DNA from: a virus | Lineage: Duplodnaviria > Heunggongvirae > Uroviricota > Caudoviricetes | Virus record (IMG/VR): IMGVR_UViG_2541047852_000003 | Reading direction: 5' to 3' (one strand) | Length of the DNA stretch: 16,149 bases | In this document: piece by piece, positions 202-16,149 of the stretch | How the letters are laid out: every line of letters begins with the position of its first letter | Numbering within the stretch: position 1 is the first letter of the stretch | Program-made: the position numbers and the translations under genes | Notes under the pieces: model-generated | What the model was told of the DNA's origin: nothing | The model's input: only the letters and a program-made list of their open reading frames with translations | Database searches by the model: none

Positions 202-246
202 GAGTGCTATCTCCGAATAGGGAATCGAACCTGCAAATCAGGCAAT

Positions 247-268
247 AAAAAACCGCCATCAGGCGGCT
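247..268 (-). terminator. Intrinsic terminator-like hairpin (CCGCC-ATCA-GGCGG) followed by U-run on minus strand
   Basis: Stem 253-257/262-266 with A6 on plus strand at 247-252 (U-run on minus transcript); overlaps stop of the 55-aa ORF. Confidence 0.45.
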
Positions 269-426: not shown

Positions 427-498
427 TTATCATCTCCATAAAACAAAACCCGCCGTAGCGAGTTCAGATAAAAGAAATCCCCGCGAGTGCGAGGATTA

Positions 499-783: not shown

Positions 784-1063
784 GACCTTCCTCCTTTGGC
801 TTGTGAATTTGTATCGTCATGCCGCTTTGAGTGGTGACTACAACGACAAAACCAGGCTGAAGACTGTTAAGATTGAATGCTTCGTAAAACGAAGCCAAGG
901 CCAGCGCTTTTTTATTCTTTCGGTTCCACCAACGCCATCCATTGCTACAGGCTACACTGACAATCCACTGTCCACTCCTGTAAGCCATATAAAACCAGAT
1001 GAGCAAAACCTGAATGAATGCTATCCAGTCAATAATCGTATATTTCGCGAAGGAGACCATCAA
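776..1063 (-). CDS. Hypothetical protein with one predicted N-terminal TM helix
   Basis: 95-aa ORF; start overlaps stop of upstream gene (ATGA coupling); hydrophobic stretch IIDWIAFIQVLLIWFYMAY. Confidence 0.4.
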   Translation of the reverse strand: MMVSFAKYTIIDWIAFIQVLLIWFYMAYRSGQWIVSVACSNGWRWWNRKNKKALALASFYEAFNLNSLQPGFVVVVTTQSGMTIQIHKPKEEGRG

Positions 1064-1632: not shown

Positions 1633-1633
1633 A

Positions 1634-1933
1634 TCACATCCCCCTGAAGCCGTTGCATTTACGTAAAAAATCGCAGATATAGCCCTTCATTTTTTCGTGC
1701 CAATCTCGATCATTCCCATTGCACCAACCATCAGGTGGAGTCCAGTTTTCTATCAGAGCAGCCATTTTCTTTGCTTTCGCCGGAGTAGCTGTTGCGGTAT
1801 CGCAGTAATGACGAGTGTCAACCAACGTATCCATACCATCGATATCAAGTACGCAAAACCATGTGTGATTCGGCATTTCAACAGATGGTATTTGTTGCCC
1901 ACGTCGACGTTTATCAATAAGACATACAGTCAC
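1634..1933 (-). CDS. Hypothetical early protein (99 aa)
   Basis: GTG start overlapping upstream stop (GTGA) with AAGGAGG 6 nt upstream; tightly packed with neighbours. Confidence 0.4.
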   Translation of the reverse strand: MTVCLIDKRRRGQQIPSVEMPNHTWFCVLDIDGMDTLVDTRHYCDTATATPAKAKKMAALIENWTPPDGWCNGNDRDWHEKMKGYICDFLRKCNGFRGM

Positions 1934-2466
1934 TGGTTGCCTCCTTTGCGAAGCTGGGCAGCAAAGTCAACTAACCACTCAGTCATTTCAACCTTCCCTA
2001 CCAGGTCTGAACCAGGGTGCATACAGCAATCACTCTGCGCCGCTTTGAAATCCTTATACTCATATTCTTGGGCCACCAGATTTTTTGCAGCTTCTATAGC
2101 AGCATCCACCCCCTGCGCCCGCACTTCAGCCAGAAAAGCATCGGTGGCTGGGGTTTCAGTAACATCATCTTCCCATTCGCTAAACTCCTCACGACAAAAG
2201 TCATTAAATTCCTTCTCAGATTGCTTAAGTGAGGTATTTTCAGCAGCCATCTTCGCGCATTTAGCCTCAAGGTTATCAATCGTGATTCCAGCAGAACTAC
2301 ACTCCCGCAACGCCGTTTCCAGTTTTGATTCAAGTTCACCGAACTTACGGACAAGGTATTCAGCGTTTGTTTCGTTAACCTTTAAATCACTTGGGATGCA
2401 TTTACCTTTCAGAAAACCATCCATCTCAATTAGTGACATTTGTTTCATTTCTTCCCACTCCGCCAC
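1930..2466 (-). CDS. Hypothetical acidic coiled-coil early protein (Ea22-like?); alternative ATG start at 2446-2448 with GGAG upstream
   Basis: 178-aa ORF in track; internal ATG (MKQMSLIEM...) has the better SD, so the true start may be 2448. Confidence 0.45.
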   Translation of the reverse strand: MAEWEEMKQMSLIEMDGFLKGKCIPSDLKVNETNAEYLVRKFGELESKLETALRECSSAGITIDNLEAKCAKMAAENTSLKQSEKEFNDFCREEFSEWEDDVTETPATDAFLAEVRAQGVDAAIEAAKNLVAQEYEYKDFKAAQSDCCMHPGSDLVGKVEMTEWLVDFAAQLRKGGNQ

Positions 2467-2542
2467 ATCGCATTCAGATATTTGTTGTCATTAACAGAAC
2501 CGAAACTCTTTCTCTTAAGCAAGTCCTCTCATGGTAAATTCC

Positions 2543-2839
2543 TCAGTCATTACTGATAGCGCCATAGCGTGAGCGGTAATTACGCAGGCGCGGGTCGATA
2601 TATTCAGGGAAGTGGGTATATGTGGCTTTGCGGAATGGTCGGATTGATGTCTGGTAAATTCGCTCGCGTTCTTCTTTCTCTGCAAGCCATATACAGTGGC
2701 GAAATTCCTTTTCCTCTTTCGTTTCCTGCGGTAGAGACATTATTCGATCGTAGTTTTTTCTGAATTTATCCAGCACCTCCGATACGGAATTGCCGGAACA
2801 GCGGCGCGGGTCATCCGCACCATACAAAGGCGCTGGCAT
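2543..2839 (-). CDS. Hypothetical protein (98 aa)
   Basis: ORF with AAGGA upstream of ATG; no recognisable motif. Confidence 0.45.
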   Translation of the reverse strand: MPAPLYGADDPRRCSGNSVSEVLDKFRKNYDRIMSLPQETKEEKEFRHCIWLAEKEERERIYQTSIRPFRKATYTHFPEYIDPRLRNYRSRYGAISND

Positions 2840-2862
2840 AATTAAATCCTTATTTTTCTAAA

Positions 2863-3246
2863 TCAGAATGGGATGGAATCGTCGTATTCAGGATTATTTT
2901 GATGATTGCTACTTTGCTGCTGTTGGCTGTTTCCTGAAGTTGCAAATCCAATCTTTGCATTCAGTAATTCAAGAGTGATTGATTGACCATTTTGCCCCTG
3001 ATAAACATCAACCCTGATGTTTTCTCCGGTAATTTCTACAATGCCTCCTTCAACCAGAACGCTACGATAGTAATCCGCTTGCGCTCCCGGCTTGGCAAAT
3101 ACAACGGCGCTGTAGTTTGTCCATTCTTTCTTTTTTGTCTGGCGATCGTAATACTGAACGCCAGCACGGATGTTGAATCCGATATTTTCCCCGCCCTGAA
3201 ACTCTCTTGCGGGTTTGTTTAGTCTTACTGTAATCGAATGTGCCAT
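2863..3246 (-). CDS. ssb: Single-stranded DNA-binding protein (SSB)
   Basis: Start at internal ATG 3244-3246 (TAATG overlap with erf stop, AAGGGG SD); OB-fold-like N-terminus and acidic C-terminal tail ending DDSIPF, characteristic of SSB. Confidence 0.8.
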   Translation of the reverse strand: MAHSITVRLNKPAREFQGGENIGFNIRAGVQYYDRQTKKKEWTNYSAVVFAKPGAQADYYRSVLVEGGIVEITGENIRVDVYQGQNGQSITLELLNAKIGFATSGNSQQQQSSNHQNNPEYDDSIPF

Positions 3247-3851
3247 TAAGCAGTTGCCCCTTCTAATTCGTCTCGTCTGATGTTGTAAACGTCCTGCGCT
3301 TTGTGCTGCTCCGGCGTCCCTTCGAGCATCTTCCACGCTTTGGCGAACGCCTGTTTAAGCTCTTCTACGGTGTTTTTCTGCATTGCTGCGTCAGTGAATG
3401 CTTTTAGAACCTGTTCAGGTGTAAGTGATGGTTTTGATTGCTTTGCTGCTGCGTTCTGCTGATGTTTATGCTCGTCTGTATCTGCATCTTTCGCATCATC
3501 AATGCCGAACAAACCATTGAGGCAATACTTGCGTGCATAAGAGCTTGTAGCTCCCGTAACTTGTGCAGAATCCATTCCTTTCTTGCTTTCTTCCTCTCGT
3601 GCAAGAGCGGTTGCCGTATGACTGTTTTCGCCATCGGTAATAGTTGCCGTGGCTTTCACGTAATACCGATCACCAATCAACACAACTTCATCGCTGATTG
3701 ATAAAAACAGACCGTTCAGTAACGGCTTAACGCCTTCAAGAATATCTTCGCAGCTTCTGTATTTATATTTGCCGAATGAGTTGTACTGATTCTTTGGCGC
3801 GTTCAGATTCTCCTGAATAGCTGCCAGTCTTGCGTAAAATTCTTTGCTCAT
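3246..3851 (-). CDS. erf: ERF-family single-strand annealing recombinase
   Basis: 201 aa from ATG 3849-3851; N-terminus MSKEFYARLAAIQENLNAPKNQYNSFGKYKYRSCEDILEGVKPLL matches the ERF pattern; followed by SSB as in many lambdoid recombination modules. Confidence 0.65.
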   Translation of the reverse strand: MSKEFYARLAAIQENLNAPKNQYNSFGKYKYRSCEDILEGVKPLLNGLFLSISDEVVLIGDRYYVKATATITDGENSHTATALAREEESKKGMDSAQVTGATSSYARKYCLNGLFGIDDAKDADTDEHKHQQNAAAKQSKPSLTPEQVLKAFTDAAMQKNTVEELKQAFAKAWKMLEGTPEQHKAQDVYNIRRDELEGATA

Positions 3852-3952
3852 ATGATTGCTCTCAGAATGGACACGGCCCAAGGAAATAACGCTGATTTAA
3901 TACTTCGACTCGGGACAAATTAAGGCATACCCGCATTCCTTCGCGGTCACCA

Positions 3953-4111
3953 TTATGGCGATACCAGAGAGCTTTCTGCGTGTACATGCGTCTCTGTAAC
4001 TTGCTCTCCTTCACTGTGGTTGCAAGTGACATGAATATCTCCTTCGTTACCGATTAATTCTTTTATCTGACGAATGAATTCTTCGTCTGACCAGTTATCC
4101 GTAAAACTCAT
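3953..4111 (-). CDS. Small protein in kil position (52 aa), start overlapping cIII stop (ATGA)
   Basis: Positional analogy to lambda kil immediately downstream of cIII; no sequence-level recognition. Confidence 0.3.
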   Translation of the reverse strand: MSFTDNWSDEEFIRQIKELIGNEGDIHVTCNHSEGEQVTETHVHAESSLVSP

Positions 4112-4278
4112 GGACGGCCTTGTTGTTTCAAAATATCCCAAAGCTTTTCGAGCAAGCTTTTCATTCTTGGTTGTTTAAAGTCTGCTCCGGTTAAAATGTT
4201 TTTTCGTGAATGCTGTACCGATAAAATCGGGTTGAAAGGGCGAACCGATGCCGCCCCTGCAATAGCGAACTGTTGCAT
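4108..4278 (-). CDS. cIII: cIII-like protein (FtsH/HflB inhibitor)
   Basis: Start at internal ATG 4276-4278 with AAGGAG SD; MQQFAIAG N-terminus and KSLLEKLWDILKQQGRP resemble lambda CIII (MQYAIAG...ESLLERI...LIDILNQPGVP). Confidence 0.6.
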   Translation of the reverse strand: MQQFAIAGAASVRPFNPILSVQHSRKNILTGADFKQPRMKSLLEKLWDILKQQGRP

Positions 4279-4344
4279 AGGATGCTCCTTCTGTTTGATT
4301 GCATAACGAAAACGCCTCGAGTGAAGCGTTATTGGTATGCATAT

Positions 4345-4368
4345 AAAAAAGCCCTCACACTGGAGGGC
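4345..4368 (-). terminator. Intrinsic terminator (tL1-like): GCCCTC-loop-GAGGGC followed by U6 on minus transcript
   Basis: Hairpin 4351-4368 with A6 on plus strand 4345-4350; lies between the 156-aa gene and cIII. Confidence 0.55.
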
Positions 4369-4472
4369 AAAGAAGATTTCCAATAATCAGAACAAGTCGG
4401 CTCCTGTTTAGTTACGAGCGACATTGCTCCGTGTATTCACTCGTTGGAATGAATACACAGTGCTTATTCGTA

Positions 4473-4943
4473 CTAATAAAACACCCAGTTTTCTGTTTCT
4501 TGGTTGTGTCCAAAGTTATATTCAATACCTGGTGTTGATGTATCAATATTCTTCATCCCATCAACAAGAGTTGATACAACAGCCAAATCTTGTTTGATTC
4601 TCATCAAATGGTATTTCTTCCGGCGCAATAAACTTTCAATGGCAAGTTTCTTCGTCGGGAATGCAAAAGATCTTTCTGCATTTTTTGCTACTTTCTTAAT
4701 TGCATATCTATTTCTCCTTTGTTTCCATTCCTGTAACCACTGATTTGGTGCTGGTTTAAAATTAACAATCCAATGCGCAGGAACCAACCATGCATAATGC
4801 TCTGTCTGATGAAAAGCTATATATTGAAGTGCGAATATTTTGATTCCATCTTCTTCAACTGTCGCTTGGAATCTCCAGAAAACAGGCATTCCATCATGTT
4901 CAGTTTCTGATTCAGGAAAAGGTACGCTCCATGATTTTGTCAT
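4473..4943 (-). CDS. Hypothetical accessory protein (156 aa) directly downstream of N
   Basis: ORF with GAGGTG SD; occupies the ral/sieB position of lambda; no recognisable family. Confidence 0.5.
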   Translation of the reverse strand: MTKSWSVPFPESETEHDGMPVFWRFQATVEEDGIKIFALQYIAFHQTEHYAWLVPAHWIVNFKPAPNQWLQEWKQRRNRYAIKKVAKNAERSFAFPTKKLAIESLLRRKKYHLMRIKQDLAVVSTLVDGMKNIDTSTPGIEYNFGHNQETENWVFY

Positions 4944-4951
4944 ATATCACC

Positions 4952-5251
4952 TCAAATAAGTGGTTTGCTGCCTAATTTCATTTTCTGGCGACCAACACAA
5001 GTCACACCCATTTCACTGCGTGGCTTGCGGTAGTAAATACGATTCTGTTTACTCTCGACTTCATCTGCCTTCTTGCAGCGAAGGATTCCGAGTGATGCTG
5101 CTTTATCCGCTCTGACGCAACCAGAGAGCTTTAGCGCAATTTTTCGCGCCAGTCGCTGTTCTTGCATCGCCTGTTCACGTTGAGCCTGTCTGCGTGCTCT
5201 GCGGCGATTTCTGGCGTTATCGTCAGCCAGATATGTAATGACTACTGTCAT
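4952..5251 (-). CDS. N: N-like transcription antitermination protein
   Basis: Start at internal ATG 5249-5251 (GGAGG SD); arginine-rich motif DNARNRRRARRQAQREQ; C-terminus RIYYRKPRSEMGVTCVGRQKMKLGSKPLI matches lambda N C-terminus (RTWYSKPGERGITCSGRQKIKGKSIPLI). Confidence 0.8.
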   Translation of the reverse strand: MTVVITYLADDNARNRRRARRQAQREQAMQEQRLARKIALKLSGCVRADKAASLGILRCKKADEVESKQNRIYYRKPRSEMGVTCVGRQKMKLGSKPLI

Positions 5252-5563
5252 GTTGACCTCCGATGAAACAACTTTGGAATTGATAGTGATTGCAAAGTGG
5301 TTTCTGGCCCCTCGAACTGAGGGGCAGAAAGAGCATCTCGCCACCTAATAGGTCGATGCTCGGATCGAGAGATTTAATTAACCTCGGTTTTGAAGTTATG
5401 CATTCACATAAATCCTCCTACCTCTTGTGCAGCTTTCTTGAATATGGTGGCGGCTGCATAACGCCTATGGAATTGACTTTGGCGGTGACGCGCCGGGTGC
5501 TTATCTTCCGGTTGCCGTCGTGCAGCTGCACTTCACGTCACCCCAAAGCCAACTACTCTTTGG

Positions 5564-5605
5564 TTCCCGCATTTCGGCGGGACAATCCCATCAATGTTAA
5601 AGAGC
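5564..5605 (-). promoter_or_regulatory. nutL site: boxA (GCTCTTTAACA) and boxB hairpin (TCCCGC-CGAAAT-GCGGGA) on minus strand
   Basis: Reverse complement of 5595-5605 gives GCTCTTTAACA; 5564-5582 gives a boxB-like stem-loop identical in loop to the nutR copy at 6721-6740. Confidence 0.65.
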
Positions 5606-5651
5606 CTGCCAATCTGTTCCGTTTGGCTTCCAGCGTCCTGCTGATGGCTTA

Positions 5652-5730
5652 AATTTAAGATCTCTTTAATTAATGGTCAAGAGCATTTTTGAAGAAAACT
5701 TAAATTTTCTTTCGTAACTTAAGTTTGGCT
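5652..5730 (-). promoter_or_regulatory. pL promoter (-35 TTGACC at 5675-5680, -10 TAAATT at 5652-5657, minus strand) with overlapping TTAAG-type OL operator repeats
   Basis: 17-bp spacing; ATTTAAG-N4-CTTTAA-like operator overlapping -10; further TTAAG repeats at 5697-5729. Confidence 0.5.
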
Positions 5731-5743
5731 TTGATTTTTAAAG

Positions 5744-5772
5744 GAAATAAAAAAAAAGGGGCGAATGCCCCC
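5744..5772 (-). terminator. Intrinsic terminator immediately after c2 stop (GGGGC-GAAT-GCCCC followed by long U-run on minus transcript)
   Basis: Hairpin 5758-5771; A-run 5744-5757 on plus strand. Confidence 0.6.
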
Positions 5773-6423
5773 TTATGGAAGGTTTGCTAGTTTTGCATCG
5801 ACAACTACGCCGATGATTTTGCAGTTTCCGTTGATCTCGATCATCGGATATTGTGGGTTAAGTGGTTTTAGAAACTTCCTGCCTGCATCAATAACTAACT
5901 TCTTGAAAGTTGCCTCGTTTTCTCCTTCGAGCTTTGCAACTACCAGTTTCCCGTTACGCGGCTCTACTTCAGGATCGACGAGTATTATCATTCCTTCAGG
6001 GATACTGAGACCGGCCGGAGCCGTCATTGAGTCTCCCTTCACGTCCAACCAAAACGAATCTTCTGAACAGTCTACGGTTGTATCGTACCAGTTATCTATT
6101 GCACGCTTATGATATGGTTCTACAGCTTCCATCCAGCATCCTGCGCTCACCCAGCTAATCAGAGGGTATGACCCTCTTGGATCATGCCTACTGTGATAGG
6201 CAATGTTTGAAAGACTTTCCTCTCCTTTCATCAGATAGTCAGGGGAACACTTCAACGCATTAGCCAGGGCGAGAAGATTCTCTCCATTTGGCTCTGTCTC
6301 AGAGCGTTCCCACTGAGATATGGCAACATTAGACACGCCGACCATCTTTCCAAGTGCGGCCTGCCTGATCTTGAGTTCTTTTCTCCGAGCGCGAATGCGC
6401 TCTCCCATCAATTGAGTTTTCAT
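5773..6423 (-). CDS. c2: Prophage repressor, P22 c2-type (N-terminal HTH, C-terminal LexA/S24-like autocleavage domain)
   Basis: 216 aa; QAALGKMVGVSNVAISQWE HTH; C-terminal S24-like domain; near-identical to my recollection of P22 C2 (MNTQLMGERIRARRKKLKIRQAALGKMVG...). Confidence 0.85.
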   Translation of the reverse strand: MKTQLMGERIRARRKELKIRQAALGKMVGVSNVAISQWERSETEPNGENLLALANALKCSPDYLMKGEESLSNIAYHSRHDPRGSYPLISWVSAGCWMEAVEPYHKRAIDNWYDTTVDCSEDSFWLDVKGDSMTAPAGLSIPEGMIILVDPEVEPRNGKLVVAKLEGENEATFKKLVIDAGRKFLKPLNPQYPMIEINGNCKIIGVVVDAKLANLP

Positions 6424-6503
6424 AGTTAAGACATCTTAAATAAACTTGACTTAAGATTCCTTTAGTGGATAATTTAAGTGTTCTTTAATTTCGGAGCGAG
6501 TCT
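6424..6503. promoter_or_regulatory. OR region: three TTAAG-N4-CTT(T)AA operator-like imperfect palindromes (6426-6439, 6451-6465, 6473-6488), pR (-35 TTGACT 6446-6451, -10 GATAAT 6468-6473), divergent pRM presumed
   Basis: Operators and promoter hexamers read directly; arrangement matches P22/lambda-type OR. Confidence 0.65.
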
Positions 6504-6689
6504 ATGTACAAGAAAGATGTTATCGACCACTTCGGAACCCAGCGTGCTGTAGCTAAAGCGTTAGGCATTAGCGACGCAGCAGTCTCTCAGTGGAAGGAAG
6601 TCATCCCAGAGAAAGACGCCTATCGACTGGAAGTCGTTACAGCTGGCGCCCTGATGTATCAAGAAAGCGCTTACCGCAAAGCGGCATAA
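6504..6689 (+). CDS. cro: Cro repressor, P22-type
   Basis: 61 aa, HTH QRAVAKALGISDAAVSQW; GGAG SD; first gene of pR operon divergent from c2. Confidence 0.8.
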   Translation: MYKKDVIDHFGTQRAVAKALGISDAAVSQWKEVIPEKDAYRLEVVTAGALMYQESAYRKAA

Positions 6690-6695
6690 GCAAAT

Positions 6696-6740
6696 TGCTC
6701 TTTAACAGTCATGGTCCTCATTCCCGCCGAAATGCGGGAA
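6696..6740 (+). promoter_or_regulatory. nutR site: boxA (TGCTCTTTAACA 6696-6707) and boxB hairpin (TTCCCGC-CGAAAT-GCGGGAA 6721-6740)
   Basis: Read directly; same boxB as nutL; followed by hairpin GCGCAT-AAGTTG-ATGCGC at 6747-6764 (possible tR1-region structure). Confidence 0.65.
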
Positions 6741-6782
6741 TACAACGCGCATAAGTTGATGCGCATAACTTCTTATTTGTTA

Positions 6783-6820
6783 AGGAAATACTTACATATG
6801 GTTCGTGCAAACAAACGCAA
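6783..6820 (-). promoter_or_regulatory. pRE (cII-activated promoter) with TTGC-N6-TTGC CII-binding repeats (minus strand, 6807-6820)
   Basis: Reverse complement of 6807-6820 is TTGCGTTTGTTTGC; flanking sequence CATATGTAAGTATTTCC matches the lambda pRE region as I recall it. Confidence 0.6.
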
Positions 6821-7091
6821 CGAGGCTCTAAGAATCGAGAGTGCGTTGCTTAACAAAATCGCAATGCTTGGAACTGAGAAGACAGCGGAAGCTGTGGGCG
6901 TTGATAAGTCGCAGATCAGCAGGTGGAAGAGGGACTGGATTCCAAAGTTCTCAATGCTGCTTGCTGTTCTTGAATGGGGTGTTGTCGACGACGACATGGC
7001 TCGATTGGCACGACAAGTTGCTTCGATTCTCACCAATAAAAAACGCCCGGCGGCAACCGAGCGTTCTGATCAAATACAAATGGAATTTTAA
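6798..7091 (+). CDS. cII: Transcriptional activator CII (lambda-type)
   Basis: 97 aa starting MVRANKRNEALRIESALLNKIAMLGTEKTAEAVGVDKSQISRWKRDW..., essentially lambda CII; true ATG at 6798, not the upstream in-frame ATG of the track ORF. Confidence 0.9.
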   Translation: MVRANKRNEALRIESALLNKIAMLGTEKTAEAVGVDKSQISRWKRDWIPKFSMLLAVLEWGVVDDDMARLARQVASILTNKKRPAATERSDQIQMEF

Positions 7092-7102
7092 CAACATCCA
7101 AC
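7038..7102 (-). ncRNA. oop: OOP-like antisense RNA to cII 3' end (terminator 7038-7063; putative pO -10 TATAAT at 7109-7114)
   Basis: Minus-strand hairpin CGCUCGG-UUGCCG-CCGGGCG plus U6, same as lambda oop terminator; a perfect TATAAT on minus strand upstream; -35 is weak (TGGATT). Confidence 0.4.
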
Positions 7103-7113
7103 GAGGTAATTAT

Positions 7114-7386
7114 ATGCGAAACAAAGGCTTTAATCCACCTGATACACACAAAGAAGCTAAGCGTTTGCGCTTCCTTCGTTCCATTGATGAAAGAACTCAA
7201 ATCTCTTTTGTGAAAGTTGCCAGAACTGAGCTTCTGAAGGCTGAGGCGAGGGCGTTGCTCCCGTCTCTACCAAAAGAGGAGGGATATACGTTCATTCCAA
7301 ACGCATTTCTGGAAAAGCTTCTCAAAGAAGACATATCCGTAAGTCAGTTTAACGATGTTCTTAAGGTCTTTCGTCAAGGCAGGTAG
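7114..7386 (+). CDS. Hypothetical protein (90 aa) between cII and the replication initiator
   Basis: ATG 7114 with ACGAGGT SD; basic, helical-looking; no recognisable family. The track ORF extends upstream into cII and is rejected. Confidence 0.5.
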   Translation: MRNKGFNPPDTHKEAKRLRFLRSIDERTQISFVKVARTELLKAEARALLPSLPKEEGYTFIPNAFLEKLLKEDISVSQFNDVLKVFRQGR

Positions 7387-7388
7387 TT

Positions 7389-8336
7389 ATGAGCAATACA
7401 GCAAAAATCTACGATTTCAGCGCCGCACACGAGCGCAGGAGCAACAGGATGGAGAACCAGAAAACTGGTTACATTCCGTTGTACCGGAGCATTCTGAAAC
7501 AGTCATGGGCGAAAGATGTTTATCTTCGCACCCTGTGGGAAAACCTTCTCCTGAATGCCGCCAGAAAGCCATACAAAGCGAATTTCAAAGGTCATGAATG
7601 GCATCTGCAACCCGGTCAACTGGTTGTGACAGCAGCTGATTTAGGTCTTCAGTTATGCGACAGACATGGCAAGCCAGCAAGCCGTGATCAGGTTGAGCGG
7701 ATGCTTCAGGTTTTTGTGAAAGAGGGGATGATCTCCATTGATGGAGAGAAGCAAAAAGGCCGTGTGATAACCATCACAAATTACCATGAATATGCTCAAA
7801 AAATGGACAATTTACCCGCACATGAAGCCGCACAAACAACCGCACATGATGCCGCACATGATGAAGCCAGCAATAGCGCGGCTTTCAGCGTACATGCCGC
7901 ACATGAAAGCGCACATGAAGCCGCACAAACAACCGCACATCATGAACAAGAAGGTATTAACAAGAATATAAATAATACCCCCCTACCCCCCAATGGGGGA
8001 GGCGATGGGCAGGTTAAACCTGAACGTCGCAAGGCAGAACGAATCGACTACGAATCCTTCCTGAACGCCTACAACACCGAAGTCGGTGACAGACTGCCAC
8101 ACGCTGTTGCGGTCAACGAGAAACGAAAACGCCGCCTGAAGAAAATCATCCCGCAACTGAAAACGCCAAACGTGGACGGTTTCAGAGCGTATGTCAGGGC
8201 GTTTGTGCATCAGGCCAAGCCGTTTTACTTCGGAGACAACGACACGGGCTGGACGGCTGATTTTGATTACCTGCTGAGAGAAGACTCGTTAACGGGAGTT
8301 CGGGAAGGGAAGTTTGCAGACAGGGGGATTGCATGA
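7389..8336 (+). CDS. Replication initiator, lambda O / P22 gp18-like, with internal origin
   Basis: 315 aa; N-terminus [10 protein letters not shown] resembles lambda O (MTNTAKILNF); iterons and AT-rich tract lie inside the gene; followed by helicase gene with ATGA overlap. Confidence 0.7.
7815..7979. repeat. Origin of replication: about six direct iterons of the form CCGCACATGA(A/T)G plus two CCGCACAAACAACCG copies, followed by a 30-bp AT-rich tract (7950-7979)
   Basis: Repeats read directly at 7817-7945; AT-rich AAGGTATTAACAAGAATATAAATAATA follows; classic lambdoid ori architecture within the initiator gene. Confidence 0.7.
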
Positions 8337-9709
8337 GACAGGATATCGAAGCGAGCGTTATCGGTGGCCTGCTGATTGGTGGATTAACTCCAACCGCCAG
8401 TGACGTTCTTGCAACGCTGGAGCCGGAAGCGTTTTCAATTCCGCTCTACCGGAAAGCCTTCGAGGTTATCCGGAAGCAGGCGAGAAACAGAAACCTAATC
8501 GACGCGCTGATGGTTGCCGAGGCGTGCGGAGAGGAGCATTTCACGTCAATCCTGATGACCAGCAAAAACTGCCCGAGCGCCGCAAACCTGAAGGGATATG
8601 CCGGAATGGTCGCGGATAACTATCACCGCCGTCTGGTGCTGGAAATCATGGATGAAATGCGTGAACCAATCCAAAGCGGAACCATCGACGCATCGAGTCA
8701 GGCGATGGATGAACTTGTAAAACGTCTCTCAGCCATCAGAAAGCCCCGTGACGAGGTTAAACCTGTACGGTTAGGGGAAATCATCACCGACTACACTGAC
8801 ACGCTTGACAGGCGTCTGAGGAACGGAGAAGAGTCCGATACCCTGAAGACCGGAATCGAAGAACTTGATGCCATCACCGGAGGGATGAACGCGGAAGACC
8901 TGGTGATAATCGCTGCTCGTCCTGGTATGGGGAAAACCGAACTGGCGCTGAAGATTGCCGAAGGCGTTGCAAGCCGCGTTATTCCTGGTTCTGACGTCCG
9001 GCGCGGGGTATTGATTTTCTCAATGGAAATGAGCGCATTGCAGATTGCAGAGCGAAGCATTGCCAACGCCGGGAGGATGTCGGTTAGCGTACTGCGAAAT
9101 CCTGCATCGATGGATGACGAGGGCTGGGCACGTGTTGCTAACGGCATGAGTCAGCTTGCAGATTTGGATGTATGGGTAGTCGATGCCTCGCGATTATCGG
9201 TCGAAGAAATACGCTCAATCGCAGAACGGCACAAACAGGAAAATCCAAACCTCTCACTCATCATGGCGGATTATCTTGGCCTGATTGAGAAGCCGAAAGC
9301 AGACCGCAACGACCTCGCAATTGCTCACATCTCCGGAAGCCTGAAGGCGATGGCGAAAGACCTGAAAACACCGGTTATTTCCCTGAGTCAGCTTTCACGC
9401 GATGTTGAGAAGCGACCAAACAAACGCCCGACAAACGCAGATTTGCGTGATTCAGGAAGCATTGAACAGGACGCAGACTCAATCATCATGCTCTATCGGG
9501 AAGCGGTATATGACGAGAACAGTAGCGCCGCGCCATTTGCTGAAATCATCGTGACGAAAAACCGTTTTGGCTCACTTGGTACGGTTTACCAGCGGTTCTG
9601 CAACGGACACTTTGTTGCATGTGACCAGGATGAAGCCAGACAGATTTGCACAGCATCAAATGCACCTGCTGCGCGTGGCAGACGATATGCACAAGGGGCT
9701 GACGTATGA
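8333..9709 (+). CDS. Replicative DNA helicase, DnaB family (P22 gp12-like)
   Basis: 458 aa; Walker [16 protein letters not shown], Walker B-like [21 protein letters not shown] arginine-finger region. Confidence 0.85.
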
Positions 9710-9789
9710 CCATCTACATCACTGAGCTTGTAACAGGCCTGCTGGTAATCGCAGGCCTTTTTATTTGGGGGAGGGTAAATCGTGGTTGA
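9706..9789 (+). CDS. Possible 27-aa hydrophobic peptide ([27 protein letters not shown])
   Basis: ATG overlaps helicase stop (ATGA); single hydrophobic helix; too short to call firmly. Confidence 0.2.
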
Positions 9790-9988
9790 GTTGATTTTTT
9801 CTGCATTGAGGATTCTCGGTGCTATGTGGATGGTGGCGACGTTCATTGTGGTTGCCAGCAGTTTTGTCCGGTTGGTAGGCGAAGGTAAAGACCTGGTTGG
9901 TGTGCTTTTCGGTAGCATTTTTCTGTGGGTGATTATCGGTGTTATGCCTGTTGTCGTAGCAAAAGTGGCGTGGCGTTTTGTGAGTTAA
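9782..9988 (+). CDS. Small membrane protein (68 aa, two predicted TM helices)
   Basis: GTG start preceded by GGGGAGGG SD; strongly hydrophobic sequence. Confidence 0.45.
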   Translation: MVELIFSALRILGAMWMVATFIVVASSFVRLVGEGKDLVGVLFGSIFLWVIIGVMPVVVAKVAWRFVS

Positions 9989-10000
9989 TCGGAGGTTAAT

Positions 10001-10183
10001 GTGAGCAAGTGCCAAAAGTGCAATAACACAGGAATGTGTGATAGCGGAGGTTCTACTCCTTGGGGAGAGCCGATTTTTATTGAATGTGACTGCCTTATGA
10101 AAGATGACGAAAGCAGATGCCAGTTTGAAGAGAGTTGGTTACGACGTGGGGGGCGAATCTTCAGACCTTATCCGTTACCCTGA
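10001..10183 (+). CDS. Cysteine-rich small protein (CxxC...CxC, zinc-ribbon-like); probably 5' part of a frameshifted gene
   Basis: GTG start with GGAGG SD; MSKCQKCNNTGMCDSGG...ECDC motif; frame changes at the G6 tract 10148-10153. Confidence 0.4.
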   Translation: MSKCQKCNNTGMCDSGGSTPWGEPIFIECDCLMKDDESRCQFEESWLRRGGRIFRPYPLP

Positions 10184-10418
10184 AAATCACCATGAAATTG
10201 GCAGTGGTGATATTGGTGGTCAATACGTGATGGACGATGTTCAAGGCCACTGGCAAACGTGGCAGGCATCGAGAGCAGCTATTGAAATTGAGCTGCAAAA
10301 GCCAAAGAAAGGCCCACTTCCCGGTGATTATCACATTGGCTATGACTCAGGTGCAGAATCGCAATACGAAAGCGATGTAGAGGCTATCCGCGCCGCTGGA
10401 ATCAAAGTGAAGGAGTGA
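10104..10418 (+). CDS. Hypothetical protein; probably 3' part of the same gene as 10001-10183 (frames meet at G6 tract)
   Basis: Overlaps previous ORF by 80 nt in another frame; no convincing independent start before internal ATG 10230. Confidence 0.3.
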   Translation: MTKADASLKRVGYDVGGESSDLIRYPENHHEIGSGDIGGQYVMDDVQGHWQTWQASRAAIEIELQKPKKGPLPGDYHIGYDSGAESQYESDVEAIRAAGIKVKE

Positions 10419-10606
10419 GCATGAGTCGACGAAGTAGCTTTTTGGGGTTTGTAATATTCCTGTCCTGCACTGGTTACATCGTAATCTGGTCAATTTCGAA
10501 CATTGACCGTGGCGGGAAATATCTCATTGTAATGTTCTTTCCTTTGTTTCTTGGGTGGTACGCCGCAAGGTTGCTGGAAGAATGGGGTTACAGGCATAAA
10601 AAATAA
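10415..10606 (+). CDS. Small membrane protein (63 aa)
   Basis: ATG overlaps upstream stop (ATGA); two hydrophobic segments; ends 7 bp before IS629. Confidence 0.45.
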   Translation: MSMSRRSSFLGFVIFLSCTGYIVIWSISNIDRGGKYLIVMFFPLFLGWYAARLLEEWGYRHKK

Positions 10607-10667
10607 AGGAGTATGAACCGCCCCGGGAATCCTGGAGACTAAACTCCCTGAGAAAGAGGTAAACAGG

Positions 10668-10994
10668 ATGACTAAAAATACTCGTTTTTCCCCCGAAGTC
10701 CGTCAGAGGGCGATTCGTATGGTTCTGGAAAGTCAGGGCGAATATGACTCACAGTGGGCGGCAATTTGTTCCATTGCCCCAAAGATTGGCTGTACACCGG
10801 AGACTCTGCGTGTCTGGGTACGCCAGCATGAGCGGGATACCGGAGGCGGTGATGGCGGGCTCACCACCGCTGAACGTCAGCGTCTGAAAGAGCTGGAACG
10901 TGAAAATCGTGAACTGCGCCGCAGTAACGATATCCTTCGCCAGGCTTCCGCTTATTTTGCGAAGGCGGAGTTCGACCGCCTCTGGAAAAAATGA
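10668..10994 (+). CDS. IS629 transposase OrfA (HTH/leucine-zipper part)
   Basis: 108 aa [21 protein letters not shown]...; A6 run at 10986-10991 is the likely -1 slippery site for OrfAB fusion. Confidence 0.85.
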
Positions 10995-11881
10995 TGCCAC
11001 TGCTGGATAAGCTGCGTGAGCAGTACGGGGTCGGACCGCTATGCAGCGAACTGCATATTGCCCCGTCAACGTATTACCACTGTCAGCAACAGCGACATCA
11101 TCCGGATAAACGCAGTGCCCGTGCGCAGCGCGATGACTGGCTGAAGAAAGAGATACAGCGCGTATACGATGAAAATCACAAGGTATACGGTGTGCGTAAA
11201 GTCTGGCGTCAGTTGTTACGGGAAGGTATCAGAGTGGCCAGATGCACTGTGGCACGTCTCATGGCGGTTATGGGACTTGCCGGTGTTCTCCGTGGTAAAA
11301 AGGTCCGTACGACCATCAGCCGGAAAGCCGTTGTCGCAGGCGACCGCGTAAACCGTCAGTTCGTGGCAGAACGTCCTGACCAGTTGTGGGTGGCTGATTC
11401 TACTTACGTCAGCACATGGCAGGGGGTCGTCTATGTGGCGTTCATCATTGATGTGTTTGCCGGATACATCGTGGGGTGGCGGGTCTCATCGTCTATGGAA
11501 ACGACATTTGTGCTGGATGCTCTGGAGCAGGCGTTATGGGCCCGTCGACCGTCCGGCACAGTCCATCACAGTGATAAAGGTTCTCAGTATGTATCGCTGG
11601 CCTACACACAGCGGCTTAAGGAAGCCGGATTACTGGCATCAACAGGAAGTACAGGCGACTCGTATGACAACGCGATGGCGGAGAGCATCAATGGCCTTTA
11701 CAAAGCGGAGGTAATACACCGTAAGAGCTGGAAAAACCGTGCAGAAGTGGAACTGGCCACACTCACGTGGGTGGACTGGTATAACAATCGACGATTGCTG
11801 GAAAGGCTGGGCCATACTCCTCCGGCAGAAGCAGAAAAAGCTTATTATGCTTCCATCGGAAACGATGATCTGGCAGCCTGA
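10991..11881 (+). CDS. IS629 transposase OrfB (DDE catalytic domain)
   Basis: 296 aa with rve-type DDE region (WVADSTYV...HHSDKGSQY...[15 protein letters not shown]). Confidence 0.85.
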
Positions 11882-12050
11882 GTTCACAGATAAAACACTC
11901 TCCAGGAAACCCGGGGCGGTTCAGACCTGCACTCTTCCTTTGCCCTGCTACCGATAGCATCCTTTAACGACTGCGGCATCCTTACCAAAATCTTACTTAT
12001 TTCTTTCTCCATGTTACCCTCCACGCAAACAACTCTTTTCGAATACAAAA

Positions 12051-12104
12051 GATAGCAAAGTGAGTATATCTAGTCAAAATTTTTTTGCATACACTTTGCT
12101 ATCA
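12051..12104. promoter_or_regulatory. 12-bp inverted repeat GATAGCAAAGTG / CACTTTGCTATC flanking a 30-bp AT-rich spacer upstream of the RHH gene; candidate operator/promoter
   Basis: Arms at 12051-12062 and 12093-12104 are exact reverse complements; spacer holds TATATC and TTGCAT hexamers. Confidence 0.4.
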
Positions 12105-12126
12105 AATTGAATACCAAAGGTGTTAT

Positions 12127-12375
12127 ATGGCAAAGGGTGTGTCAATTTCTCCAACTACGGTAAGAATCCCTGAATCTTTACGCGAGGCTCTTGCTGTCAG
12201 AGCATCAAAAAATGGTCGCTCTGTTAACTCCGAGATCGTCATGATTTTGCAAGCCGCGATTGATGAAGATAGGTCGCCAAAGTCAGTTGAGTCATTTGCT
12301 CAGCAAGAAGCTGATAAATTCAAAGAGGCGCTACTTGAGACGCTAAAGACCATGTATGCTAAGGATGAAAAATAA
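12127..12375 (+). CDS. Arc/MetJ-type ribbon-helix-helix DNA-binding protein
   Basis: 82 aa from ATG 12127 (AAGGTG SD); RIPESLREALAVRASKNGRSVNSEIVMILQAAI matches the Arc-family RHH pattern. Confidence 0.6.
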   Translation: MAKGVSISPTTVRIPESLREALAVRASKNGRSVNSEIVMILQAAIDEDRSPKSVESFAQQEADKFKEALLETLKTMYAKDEK

Positions 12376-12911
12376 TGCTGCACACAATTCATTTCTTATG
12401 CCCTGTTAACACTGCCACTGTTGGGCAACTTCAGAACCACTGTCTCACCGCATTATCTCAAGGCGCAACTGAATTAAATATCCATATATCAAGTCAGGGA
12501 GGGGAAACTGCTGCTGGCTTTACTGCGTATAACTTTCTTAAGTCACTCCCTGTTACCGTTAGAACTCACAACATAAGCAATGTTGAATCCATAGCTAATA
12601 TCGTTTTCCTGGCTGGCTCAGAACGTTTCGCAAACCCATTATCAAGATTCCTGTTACATCCTCTATTATGGTGCTTTGCCTCCCCAGCCGCCGACCATGC
12701 CAGATTGAGAGAGTACGGGAAATGCCTCGATAACGATCTTGATCGCTTCGTTGAGACGTTCAATATCGACATCGGAACCCATATTAGGTGGGCATCCCTG
12801 ATAGCAGACTCGACCATTTTGGATGCTAACAAGGCTCTTGAGCATGGCATAATTAATTCCATAAAAACTGCAAGGCTGGCATCCAATCAGGCAAACTGGT
12901 GGGTTGTTTGA
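12375..12911 (+). CDS. Minimal ClpP-fold (S14-like) serine peptidase
   Basis: 178 aa; by-eye alignment to E. coli ClpP core: NIHISSQGGETAAGF vs YLYINSPGGVITAGM; Ser in ESIANIVFLAG aligns with catalytic Ser of GQAASMGAFLLTAG; His in RFLLHPL aligns with RVMIHQPL; start overlaps RHH stop (TAATG). Confidence 0.6.
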   Translation: MLHTIHFLCPVNTATVGQLQNHCLTALSQGATELNIHISSQGGETAAGFTAYNFLKSLPVTVRTHNISNVESIANIVFLAGSERFANPLSRFLLHPLLWCFASPAADHARLREYGKCLDNDLDRFVETFNIDIGTHIRWASLIADSTILDANKALEHGIINSIKTARLASNQANWWVV

Positions 12912-12936
12912 TGGGTAAATCATGATTACTCCTTAT

Positions 12937-12961
12937 AAAAAACCCACCTGACGGTGGGTTT
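12937..12961. terminator. Bidirectional intrinsic terminator between convergent operons (CCCACC-TGAC-GGTGGG with A6 upstream and T-rich downstream)
   Basis: Hairpin 12943-12958; U6 on minus transcript, UUU on plus transcript. Confidence 0.55.
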
Positions 12962-13409
12962 AGTCAAACATAGTGTTTCTAAAGTCTCTCGCATACCCTG
13001 CTAACACTCTCATTCTATTATGATTGTTAGCAGACATGTGAGCTACAGGATGAAAAAGAGCAATCAATGAATACCTGTTCTCATCAAAAAGATTTTGTGC
13101 ATAAACGAGAGCGGTATTGGATGTTTTATGCCACTGCAACTTTTGCGGTGTGCTGATATCTGTGCCATTTTTTATTGGCTCAAATTTATTTTCACCAATT
13201 GCTAAATGAAGGTGCATAAGGCCTGCATCTTCAATATCAGGAGGTCGATGATAAGAGGTGTCTCTGCCAAAATAGCTGGGCAACGTTCCCGTAGACTTGT
13301 AGATGATAAAATCATCTACAAGTGTTTGTTTTAAATCAGGAAACTCAACAAAAACCGGGGAGAAAAAATAGTCAAAACTATCCTGATTATATTCCACGGT
13401 TACTTGCAT
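12960..13409 (-). CDS. Putative YafO-like toxin (ribosome-dependent mRNA interferase family), tentative
   Basis: 149 aa; motifs FIIYKSTGTLPSYFGRDTSY, MHLHL, TALVYAQNLFDE, LIALFHP recalled as YafO-family features; assignment from memory only. Confidence 0.4.
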   Translation of the reverse strand: MQVTVEYNQDSFDYFFSPVFVEFPDLKQTLVDDFIIYKSTGTLPSYFGRDTSYHRPPDIEDAGLMHLHLAIGENKFEPIKNGTDISTPQKLQWHKTSNTALVYAQNLFDENRYSLIALFHPVAHMSANNHNRMRVLAGYARDFRNTMFD

Positions 13410-13417
13410 GTTTTACC

Positions 13418-13984
13418 TCAGTGGAAGTTACCAGAGTGAAACACACGAGTCCCGTGCTCAGCAAGCGCACGCAAACCAGCCATATCTACGGAACTATCAA
13501 AAACAACCGGAACACATGAGCGTTGTTTAATAAGACTATTCAGGTTGGTTACGGCAGATCTGGCATCAGCAACAACGATATAGATATCTCTTGCGATCTC
13601 TTTAAAATCAGCAGAAGCTTCTTTGAATACCGATTTCATTGCCCCTTCAAGTCCTCTCAATTGATGCTCTATCAATCGAGACTTTTCTGGTTCAATGATA
13701 GACAACACATTGTCTACATTCTCATCGGTAGCGTTTGCAAGAACACGATAAGCGTATTTCAGCATTCGAGACAATTCTTTAATCGAAGACACCGCCTCAT
13801 GAAGCTCATCATTAGCCCGTTCACTGCTGAATGAGGATTGATGGTAAGCGTGCTGAACGTTATCAGTAACAACCACCTCACAACTGAACGCAGAAGCTTG
13901 CTGTAATAGCAAACCTATTGCGACTCCAGCTTTGGCAGCGTTCAAGCTAAACATTTCATCAATCCCATTAGTCTCATTGCTCAT
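13418..13984 (-). CDS. Hypothetical protein (188 aa) upstream of and co-transcribed with the YafO-like gene; possible atypical antitoxin/partner
   Basis: Start at ATG 13982-13984 with AAGGAGG SD (internal to the track ORF); stop 8 nt before the downstream start; no recognisable domain. Confidence 0.5.
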   Translation of the reverse strand: MSNETNGIDEMFSLNAAKAGVAIGLLLQQASAFSCEVVVTDNVQHAYHQSSFSSERANDELHEAVSSIKELSRMLKYAYRVLANATDENVDNVLSIIEPEKSRLIEHQLRGLEGAMKSVFKEASADFKEIARDIYIVVADARSAVTNLNSLIKQRSCVPVVFDSSVDMAGLRALAEHGTRVFHSGNFH

Positions 13985-14159
13985 ACAAACCTCCTTCTTA
14001 TCGGAGATTATCAATAGCTATGCATCCATTGAATACACGCTATGCGCAATAAGTTTACGTCACGTGATATCATTATGCAACCACCGTTCTATCACCGACT
14101 AACTTTACTCCCACTCCTATACATCATCTGGTATCCTGCGCAAAACTAAGGAGGTTGGT

Positions 14160-14510
14160 GTGAATGCTCAGTCTGTCATCATGGTTTTCCTTGGGCTGAT
14201 TGTCGCAAAACTATATCCAGACTGGTGGAAAGGGGCATTAGCTACTGTCGCCATCTATTTGCTTTTATCCATCGTTAAGCGATCACTCGCTGAGACCGTA
14301 AATCAAGCAAAACGTTTCTCATTTAAGAGTTTAATAAACTATGTTACTGGGCTTATTTTTTGCCTTTCAATTCTGATCGCTTCGGCTTTTTTGCCCGTAT
14401 CAATAGCTAATTTTTTTGGCGCACCATATGAGGTAGGTTATCTATTCTCTGTTTCCTGTCTTGCCATTGCTCTTCTTTACCTGTGGACGAGATCAAAGAA
14501 TAAAAATTAG
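14160..14510 (+). CDS. Integral membrane protein (116 aa, 3-4 predicted TM helices)
   Basis: GTG start 5 nt after AAGGAGG; hydrophobic segments VIMVFLGLIVAKL, ATVAIYLLLSIV, GLIFCLSILIASAFLPV, YLFSVSCLAIALLYLW. Confidence 0.5.
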   Translation: MNAQSVIMVFLGLIVAKLYPDWWKGALATVAIYLLLSIVKRSLAETVNQAKRFSFKSLINYVTGLIFCLSILIASAFLPVSIANFFGAPYEVGYLFSVSCLAIALLYLWTRSKNKN

Positions 14511-14527
14511 CCATCCGTGGCTGCCAG

Positions 14528-15990
14528 TTATTGAGCTTCTTTTTGTGATGCCTGTGCGACTCTGGTGAGCGATTGTGTGACCGTACTGATCGCTCTGTCA
14601 TATGCTGTGCTACCTTTTGGCGTATTTGCCAGACGTAACAAGGCATTTCGTATAACAGGGCTTTCGTATGCCTTCGCAGCTCCTCCTACGACACCAGCAG
14701 CAGGAACAACAAACGCAGCCGTTTTTAGCATCCCCGCTAATACTGCTGCGTTTATGATGCCACCACCAACTAACAATCCATAAAGCTGCTGACCATTTAA
14801 GTTTTGAACGTTCGCTTTTGCCGCGTGTCTTGTATCGTTGAGGTATTTAATAACGCCGTCCAGTTCCTTTCCATGTACGCCTTTAAAGAAAGTTGCTGAT
14901 TGCTTCCTGTTCCGGTGTAACGCATTAATAAACTTTTCAACACTAATATTTCCAGACGGATCAGTCGCCTTATCTACAGCATTCTGAACTATGGCTGCTC
15001 GTGCGTTTTGCCTACCATTGTCATCCAGAAGCCTGTAAAGCTGAGAACGTTCTGATGGGTTTTGGCTAAAAACGAGTTTTGTTACATCCTCAGGTGTAGC
15101 CTTGCCGCTGGCTATTGCCTTTTGAACGCGCGTTCTTCCCATCATGTCATTGAATCTAGCCCATGAGCGATCAACCCTAGACATATTGGCAGCTTCTTCT
15201 GAGCCTAGTTTTTGGGATACTGCTTTTTTCATATCCGCTGTATATGCCTTGTAGACAATATCGCTGGCTTTCTGGAGCGTGTCTTTATCAACAGTCTCGT
15301 TTGAATTCATGAACCGCTTTCGAAGGTCAGTTCTGTTTTCTCTCGCCAGACGCAGGTCATTGGGTCCGCTGGTGATATCGTCTTTAAATTGCTGCAAGAC
15401 TTTTACCGCGGCTCTATCCTGAGATTTGCCCGGGCGGCTTAACACGGCAATCTGATTGTCGATAGCTTTTACCGTGTTTGAGAGATCGACAGGGGTATCC
15501 CCCATAGCGTCAATTATGCGGTTATATCGCTTTCCTGCTGCCTCAATGAATTTTTGTTGCCCTTTAGTCGCAGATTCATAAAGCTGTTTATCAGAAATGC
15601 CACCCAGACCATCGCTAAATGTTCTGACTAAATTTTCTCGTGCTTGTTGTTGATTCAGCCGATTCTTACCGGTTCCAAAAAAAGGAACTCTTTCGCCTAA
15701 TGTCTGAGCCTGACTCTGCATAAAGGTTTTATCTTTCAGCGTGTCACTGGTCATTAACGGCAGGTTTCTTTCCGACGCAAAATCGACAGCAGCCTTTGCT
15801 TCCGGTGACATCTCACCGCGAACAGCCCTGGAAACCGCACTAACTGTATTTTCCAGCCCCTTGCCAACACCACCAATGCCAGCAGAAATTACCGTTTGTG
15901 CAGGATCAATATCTTCTCCGCCAGCAAGGCTGGTGCCACCCTGTAGTGCTAAATCTGTAGCAGCTGATTTCCCTATGGCACCAAGCACCG
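14528..15990 (-). pseudogene. 5'-truncated gene remnant (at least 486 codons) interrupted by IS629; helical protein with C-terminal Gly/Ala-rich hydrophobic segment
   Basis: Reading frame stays open from 15988 through the IS629 terminal repeat to a stop at 16046-16048; no credible start or SD at the junction. Confidence 0.5.
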
Positions 15991-16149
15991 TGAACCGCCC
16001 CGGGTTTCCTGGAGAGTGTTTTATCTGTGAACTCAGGCTGCCAGATCATCGTTTCCGATGGAAGCATAATAAGCTTTTTCTGCTTCTGCCGGAGGAGTAT
16101 GGCCCAGCCTTTCCAGCAATCGTCGATTGTTATACCAGTCCACCCACGT
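15991..16149 (-). mobile_element. Second IS629 copy, inverted, partial (continues beyond window)
   Basis: 15991-16149 is the exact reverse complement of 11765-11923 of the first copy (right IR and orfB 3' end). Confidence 0.85.
16033..16149 (-). CDS. IS629 OrfB C-terminal fragment (partial at window edge)
   Basis: Reverse complement encodes ...[38 protein letters not shown] with stop at 16033-16035. Confidence 0.8.
   Translation of the reverse strand, partial: TWVDWYNNRRLLERLGHTPPAEAEKAYYASIGNDDLAA

Follow-up and report, generated by a model that had tools for sequence, protein, structure and literature searches.

The window analysed here, a stretch of viral DNA of 16,149 nt, closes with an open reading frame that raises a simple question: is it a gene, or what is left of one? 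The program-made ORF list places it on the minus strand at 14528..15988, with a GTG start at 15988 and a product of 486 aa, and upstream of that start the frame runs on into an insertion sequence (IS). The original prediction had described a 486-codon frame that stays open across the IS boundary at 15990/15991 and stops only at 16046-16048; we find the open frame, the boundary and the stop at exactly these positions. We consider it very likely that the ORF is a recently made pseudogene, namely the IS-cut 3′ part of a gp16-family gene belonging to a CUS-3-like prophage at dsdC/argW in E. coli of the K1 type.

Similarity of the ORF to P22 gene 16

A protein search of the ORF, one of the checks originally suggested, led to the PHROG 770/P22 gp16 family. 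The remnant covers positions 166-667 of PHROG 770 ('DNA transfer protein', 668 positions) with an E value of 3.8e-144, the intact allele described below covers positions 2-667, and a precomputed match to PF26808 (Phage_P22_gp16) is recorded for this exact 486-aa product. Searches with tblastn gave matches to gene 16 of P22, ST64T, ST104 and others, and BLASTP aligned residues 179-652 of the intact S88 allele to residues 151-592 of P22 gp16 (609 aa) with 30% identity (E 5e-53). The only family matches of the ORF are to P22 gp16-type 'DNA transfer protein' groups. Neither the remnant nor the intact allele gave a match in Pfam-A or NCBIfam, the Pfam copy used probably predating PF26808, and a sequence search of the PDB gave no chain at E ≤ 1. 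Judged by similarity, the product belongs to the P22 gene-16 ejection proteins (PF26808/PHROG 770). The earlier description of the product as 'tape-measure or ejection-like' is thus borne out in its second half; a tape-measure protein was rejected, there being no profile similarity and the context being a short-tailed P22-like prophage with a tailspike. A part in 'the cargo system', which had also been proposed, found no support.

S88, AH19K002 and many further E. coli genomes share the DNA from 11924 to 15991 (4,068 bp) at 100% identity, and this identity ends at the IS boundary. In the S88 sequence (L001) the match lies at 3625-7692 (S88 plus strand 2500039-2504106) and the intact gene at 6229-8241 on the minus strand. 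Many K1-type E. coli genomes (S88, APEC O1) carry the identical DNA with the gene continuing upstream, and in contigs L007 and L008 native gene 16 likewise continues upstream of the equivalent of 15991, the alignments ending where the window enters the IS. The S88 gene extends 549 nt further upstream to an ATG, giving 2,013 nt and 670 aa (WP_000868966.1), and is annotated as a 'P22-gp16 family phage DNA ejection protein'. Intact alleles encode 670 aa, with an ATG that overlaps the stop codon of gene 20. Before gene 16, the S88 genes run in the order P22-type coat, gp4, gp10, DUF2824, 'P22-gp17 family phage DNA ejection protein', which holds the gene-7 position, and a gene-20-type 'phage DNA ejection protein'. 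The gene 16′ remnant (14528..15990, minus strand), assigned from its identity to S88 and from PHROG 770 and PF26808, comprises codons 184-670 plus the stop codon, or the 3′ 73% of the gene. A full-length gene (about 609-670 aa) with its own start and coupled to gene 20 is absent from the window, and the copy found here is a gene fragment, presumably not a functional member of the family.

Could the 486-aa product nevertheless be an intact gene starting at GTG 15988? Gene callers do give exactly this product in four assemblies. In all four, however, there is a disruption upstream, each time a different one, and the mechanically chosen GTG is the native internal Val185, residue 2 of the remnant being residue 186 of the full-length protein. 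Since the same 486-aa call is made in three other, differently disrupted assemblies, the GTG appears to be the callers' fallback and not a real start. An intact gene had been expected to show itself by homologues of about 486 aa with a start of their own, but the homologues have 609-670 aa (609 in P22 gp16, 670 in the intact alleles) and the PHROG profile has 668 positions. We regard this reading as next to impossible. The gene has also been disrupted independently in other strains: AH20K059 carries an IS at a different codon of gene 16, E10 has a frameshift and an IS in gene 20, and in a Logan contig gene 16 is split into two ORFs.

Comparison with known ejection proteins

P22 virions carry gp7, gp16 and gp20, and these leave the particle once it has adsorbed, ahead of the DNA (PMC10883804). 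The three proteins assemble a conduit through the envelope and are all needed for K+ release and DNA entry; gp16 is membrane-associated, is assigned to the inner membrane and has to match gp20 (PMC10883804). In an intact phage, the protein discussed here would be encoded in the late operon directly behind genes 7 and 20, become part of the virion and exit it before the DNA; jointly with gp7 and gp20 it would then form the genome conduit across the envelope, with gp16 acting at the inner membrane. A fragment that lacks the N-terminal 183 residues, the operon and every other virion gene cannot perform this role in ejection.

The intact E. coli allele resembles P22 gp16 both in sequence, being homologous over P22 residues 151-592, and in position, as it likewise lies after genes 7 and 20 and before immI (mnt/arc/ant) and the tailspike. 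The order gene 7-20-16, followed by the sieA/moron slot and immI, is present in S88 and in P22. The two proteins differ in length (670 versus 609 aa), and the N-terminal ~180 residues of the E. coli allele are unaligned, which fits the known mosaicism of gene 16 (PMC10883804, PMC8954989); mosaicism and a wide range of sizes are features of ejection-protein genes of this class (PMC8954989). The window copy departs further from P22 gene 16 in having lost the first 183 codons and the operon context: it keeps the 3′ neighbours of gene 16′ only, the 5′ neighbours being replaced by the IS. T7 gp16, part of the T7 ejectosome, is like P22 gp16 the largest internal virion protein, is ejected before the DNA and is inner-membrane-associated (PMC8954989). 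To this functional analogue the E. coli protein shows no sequence match, and the Pfam scan revealed no lytic transglycosylase domain in it.

The two protein features originally described, a GIGGVGKG stretch and a Gly/Ala-rich hydrophobic stretch near the C-terminus, are both present. GIGGVGKG corresponds to residues 221-228 of the full-length protein and is not conserved in the alignment with P22 gp16. A P-loop NTPase was considered for this stretch and rejected, as the K is followed by G instead of S/T and no Walker A motif (GxxxxGK[ST]) occurs in the 670 aa. The Gly/Ala-rich segment at about residues 586-620 is the sole stretch with a Kyte-Doolittle 19-residue mean > 1.6, and is much more hydrophobic than the corresponding segment of P22 gp16. 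It begins just after G583, the conserved equivalent of P22 G532, and spans the position homologous to P22 P546. In P22, the gp16 substitutions G532W and P546S allow escape from SieA exclusion, and G532 is reported to be conserved in P22, L, Sf6, HK620 and CUS-3 (PMC10883804).

The junction and the insertion sequences

Read on the minus strand, the junction is ...CCCGGGGCGGTTCA|CGGTGCTTGG, with 15991 as the last IS base and 15990 as the first base outside the IS. In the longer reading, ...GATGATCTGGCAGCCTGAGTTCACAGATAAAACACTCTCCAGGAAACCCGGGGCGGTTCA|CGGTGCTTGGTGCC..., the letters before the bar comprise the 3′ end of orfB from an IS3-family element (...GNDDLAA*) and, behind it, the right terminal repeat. 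Codon 184 is broken behind its first base, and by coincidence the IS ends in an A that supplies this base again. Upstream of the remnant lies an IS-derived in-frame leader (15991..16048, minus strand) of 19 sense codons, which has no start codon and is closed by a TGA at 16048-16046, the first in-frame stop upstream of the ORF; the stop codon of orfB, at 16035-16033, is in another frame. The read-through into the IS is real, yet no signal in itself: it is unremarkable because a random 19-codon stretch is free of stop codons with a computed chance of ~0.40. The prediction that the gene had been disrupted by an IS is confirmed, in that an IS629-type right end cuts a gene whose intact allele encodes 670 aa. 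Other than the truncation, the remnant carries 0 inactivating mutations, which would equally be expected for a very recent event.

Two copies of the IS lie in the window. The first, IS#1 (10614..11923, plus strand), is a complete element of the IS629/IS1203 type, 1,310 bp long, with orfA (108 aa), orfB (296 aa) and an ALIL frameshift pseudoknot (RF01497, at 10949-11065, 120 bits); the IS termini are TGAACCGCCCCGGG. The second, IS#2, also of the IS3 family, is represented by its right end (15991..16149, minus strand), comprising the right terminal inverted repeat (right terminal sequence TGAACCGCCCCGGGTTTCC...) and the last codons of orfB before the window cuts it off. In its visible 159 nt it matches the right ends of IS#1 and of other copies at every position. 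The window contains 0 N, and its end is the exact start of an N gap within IS#2 in the source scaffold (L005), the N run beginning at the base directly after the window end. The features of IS629/IS1203 elements of the IS3 family were all observed, namely a length of ~1.3 kb, terminal inverted repeats, orfA and orfB with a -1 frameshift signal, and a 3-bp duplication. The names IS629 and IS1203, which we presume to be right, follow the RefSeq labels of near-identical copies.

One copy of the 3-bp target duplication (GAC) of an IS insertion in arc is found at 11924..11926 (plus strand), directly next to IS#1, and the other at the left end of IS#2 (L005 8223-8225). In AH19K002 an IS occupies the same site as IS#1 and is flanked there by a 3-bp GTA duplication. 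IS#1 is ~2% diverged, with 26-28 differences from the common type, the last at position 1082 of the element, and the final 228 bp are identical in all copies. Compared with what is known of IS629/IS1203 and of IS-mediated rearrangements in prophages, the locus shows the same deletions and inversions at IS copies and nothing unusual, IS#1 being a 2%-diverged variant.

Arrangement of the prophage and loss of DNA

The window from 4528 to 16149 is 100% identical to scaffold KE701237.1 (GCA_000459635.1; L005 21461-9840). The locus is a P22-like prophage between dsdC/torI and intS/tRNA-Arg/yfdC, with a tailspike that has endosialidase domains and with a hexapeptide acyltransferase. Prophages of the CUS-3-like type occupy the site between dsdC and argW and tend to decay (PMC9659370). 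The K1-specific members of this group (RS218, S88, APEC O1) share with our locus the site, the endosialidase tailspike, an acyltransferase in the neuO position and P22-like late genes, a likeness in site and gene content. The copy studied here differs from them in being heavily reduced and in holding four IS copies, which mark several deletions.

On the attL side, torI lies at 1-201 of the window and opens an early region (1-10613, torI to a 104-aa ORF), collinear with S88 on its minus strand. A block of 4,067 bp (11924..15990) separates the two IS copies, which are inversely oriented; it contains arc′ (the 5′ part), an mnt-like gene of the Arc family, genes for a ClpP-like protease and a YafO-family toxin, a 188-aa ORF, a 116-aa ORF and gene 16′. 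This block matches the S88 plus strand and, as assembled, is inverted with respect to the early region. When it was compared by megablast with a phage collection, the mnt/ClpP part was matched and gene 16 was not. Past the left end of IS#2 the scaffold reads ...GAGTTAAACGAC|TGAACC, which is the remainder of arc and not gene 16, followed by a 57-aa ORF, an ant fragment, the third IS, a 755-bp tailspike fragment and the fourth IS, and after the latter by the 3′ end of the tailspike gene, the neuO-like acyltransferase gene, intS and yfdC. The idea of looking for an in-frame 5′ continuation of the ORF beyond the second IS629 copy thus leads to the rest of arc in the source scaffold.

The S88 segment 2504107-2522792 (18,686 bp), which extends from ninB through gene 20 and includes codons 1-183 of gene 16, has no counterpart in the prophage remnant. 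The missing genes are the nin region, gene 23/Q, lysis, terminase, portal, coat, 4, 10, 26, 14, 7 and 20. A search with L001 7693-13692 (S88) found no match anywhere in the scaffold L005, the interval from attL to intS/argW included. About 18.7 kb are thus gone from the locus, and it is possible in principle that they reside elsewhere in the source genome. These results bear directly on the idea that IS#2 simply interrupts gene 16, with the 5′ 549 nt of the gene and genes 20, 7 and so on directly behind it. Such an insertion would agree with there being one end of the IS in the window and with an IS#2 interior that is an N gap, the link across which comes from scaffolding; moreover, strain E10 has a simple IS insertion in gene 20, next to gene 16, and retains the two halves on either side of it. 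In the scaffold, however, IS#2 adjoins arc with its left end and not gene 16, the S88 segment just mentioned is not found between attL and intS/argW, and the N gaps are about the size of an IS (1.5-1.7 kb). A simple insertion is in our judgement very improbable.

In the reading that we favour, the right end of an IS629/IS1203-type element is joined to codon 184 and 18.7 kb of upstream prophage are lost, and one inversion between inverted IS copies would have produced the order as assembled. The separation of the two GAC copies between IS#1 and IS#2 is the expected mark of recombination between inverted IS copies. Both the join to IS#2 and the orientation of the block rest on an N-gapped short-read scaffold and on the path that the assembler took through the last 228 bp of IS#1, and with this in mind we consider the assembled inversion to be probably, though by no means certainly, correct. 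The competing order has no inversion: the early region and IS#1 would be followed directly by gene 16′ and the rest of the block up to arc′, then by an IS with an intact GAC duplication and by the remainder of arc, the assembler having left IS#1 by the wrong path. This would amount to one IS-adjacent deletion of 18.7 kb and one ordinary insertion, one event fewer than the assembled order, and would leave the truncation of gene 16 unchanged. All junction sequences are compatible with it, the variant SNPs of IS#1 end at position 1082 with the last 228 bp the same in every copy, and the source is a short-read scaffold. In addition, AH20K059 has precisely a direct arrangement of early region, IS and gene 16′ (with a truncated dnaB joined, and at a different codon). 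Against it, the window connects IS#1 with the arc end inside a single contig free of gaps, mate pairs, the only information that chose between the two orders, normally fix a unique block of 4 kb, and inversions between inverted IS copies are common. We hold the order without inversion to be the less likely one, though still a serious rival. Under both topologies an IS right end truncates gene 16 at codon 184, and the locus lacks the 5′ part of the gene.

Among 5,426 complete E. coli genomes, none contained the gene 16|IS junction or the IS|arc junction, and a search for the exact junction among the species-representative genomes of GTDB gave 0 matches. The absence of both junctions from these collections suggests that the rearrangement is private to this lineage, and the 0 substitutions in 4 kb relative to intact alleles indicate that the event is recent.

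Expression and possible function of the remnant

The original prediction had noted that the junction offers no Shine-Dalgarno sequence and no native start, and had raised the possibility that the remnant is expressed as a fusion. The first point holds, for the 19-codon IS leader contains no ATG, GTG or TTG, and among the four in-frame starts within the first 160 codons the best Shine-Dalgarno candidate at a usable spacing matches AGGAGG at 4 of 6 positions, which leaves no usable site. The second finds no support: orfB is in another frame, and on the minus strand between 14300 and 16149 we found no sigma-70-like site upstream of the ORF, the minus-strand matches lying only inside it or beyond its 3′ end. 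With no promoter, no Shine-Dalgarno sequence and no in-frame start in the leader, a fusion product is unlikely. A frameshift fusion of OrfB to gp16′ was also considered. Gene 16 is in the -1 frame relative to orfB, with an overlap of four codons (GAT CTG GCA GCC TGA) in which no slippery heptamer was seen by eye, and this candidate was rejected. The remnant is presumably neither expressed nor functional, with the reservation that transcription reading through from the IS transposase might conceivably reach it. It may persist by linkage to the retained YafO-family toxin, ClpP-like protease and mnt genes and by virtue of the recency of the event.

A functional remnant can nevertheless be imagined. 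If it were expressed by read-through or from an outward promoter of the IS, the C-terminal gp16 fragment might act, for example, as a dominant-negative decoy against superinfecting P22-like phages. The fragment retains the whole region conserved with P22 gp16 (P22 151-592), including the hydrophobic segment and the positions homologous to the SieA-escape sites G532 and P546; gp16 must interact with gp20 (PMC10883804); and gene 16′ remnants stand beside accessory genes in two independently decayed prophages. On this basis a low level of a fragment of residues 185-670 could perhaps poison the gp20/gp16 conduit of incoming CUS-3-like phages, an effect to which we give very little credence. What weighs against a decoy is the same lack of a promoter-like site, a Shine-Dalgarno sequence and a start codon in the leader; furthermore, recency (0 substitutions) and the linkage to the YafO/ClpP/mnt block account for the survival of the remnant, and the points of truncation differ between strains. 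We consider such a function highly improbable. If true, it would be a case of superinfection exclusion born of prophage decay, and could explain why gene 16′ stays with the accessory block in prophages that decayed independently. Applied to the remnant and its neighbours, PADLOC reported no defence system and a single, chance-level match to ZorA.

Annotation and decay of the locus

The feature is ordinary IS-driven decay of a well-known type of prophage and as such already known biology. For annotation, the ORF should be labelled a pseudogene, that is, a 5′-truncated ejection protein gene of the P22-gp16 family, and should be taken neither for a new helical or membrane protein nor for a component of a cargo system; beyond annotation, the remnant matters little. 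A practical caution is also in order, since the end of the window is a gap in the scaffold and the local topology hinges on the path that a short-read assembler took through a repeated IS. As a whole, the locus cleanly illustrates the dismantling of CUS-3-like prophages by IS629-type elements in K1 E. coli: the decay has removed all lytic and structural genes and kept the lysogeny region together with accessory genes (YafO, ClpP-like, mnt and the neuO side). Directly after the stop codon of gene 16, a terminator-like hairpin with a T run (14509..14522, minus strand) has been retained as well, which is probably the native end of the late operon.

IS copies and IS-bounded fragments in the prophage remnant

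The complete IS629/IS1203-type element of the window (IS#1, 10614-11923) is a variant, with 26–28 differences along its 1,310 bp when set against the remaining copies of this type of the same prophage remnants, and E. coli strain AH19K002 carries this variant at the identical site, with a GTA duplication. Of the four IS copies, IS#1 alone was closed in the source assembly. N gaps are found in the remaining three (8320-9839, 6134-7633 and 3492-5191 of the source scaffold KE701237.1), and the order and orientation around these copies are therefore inferred at scaffold level. The last base of the window (16149) falls exactly at the edge of a gap that the scaffold has within the second IS copy, IS#2.

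Elsewhere on the scaffold, IS copies form the borders of a 755-bp internal fragment of an endosialidase-type tailspike gene (5285-6039) and of a 535-bp piece (7691-8225) comprising the ant 5' end, a 57-aa ORF and the 3' part of arc. Matching target duplications were absent at the IS borders of both fragments, which points to more IS-associated deletions in the same prophage.

The accessory cluster between gene 16 and mnt

The slot between mnt and gene 16, the P22-type DNA-ejection protein gene, is occupied in P22 by sieA and here by an accessory cluster, which together with mnt spans 12127-14510. In this block, mnt (12127-12375, +) is followed by a ClpP-like protease gene (12375-12911, +) whose start overlaps the mnt stop. 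The minus strand carries the gene of a YafO-family toxin (12960-13409; PF13957, E 3e-22) and, ahead of it, an uncharacterised 188-aa ORF (13418-14014) as a possible partner of the toxin; a 116-aa ORF (14160-14510, +) lies on the opposite strand to these two. PADLOC matched none of the cluster. The block has been kept in two independently decayed prophages, namely those of the source strain and of strain AH20K059.

Gene 16 is likewise broken in the Logan contigs L007 (3600-4020) and L008, approximately 70 nt upstream of the GTG that is the native internal Val185 codon. These contigs represent a different P22-like prophage, with a P63C gene and a different tailspike, and at their break gene 16 abuts a gene 7/gene 20 segment in inverted orientation, with no IS present. 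Either the cluster of ejection genes has undergone a different kind of rearrangement here, or the join is an assembly artefact.

ORFs upstream of IS#1 and the prophage end

Just upstream of IS#1, two adjoining ORFs of 104 and 63 aa (10104-10606, overlapping at 10415-10418) may constitute another pseudogene: the AH19K002 counterpart of the pair is annotated as 'hypothetical protein, frameshifted'. The 104-aa ORF, the first of the two, has a PF26207 (Phage_phiTE_015) match on record. Lastly, the very first feature of the window is torI (1-201, -; 66 aa), a marker of the prophage's end on the dsdC side.
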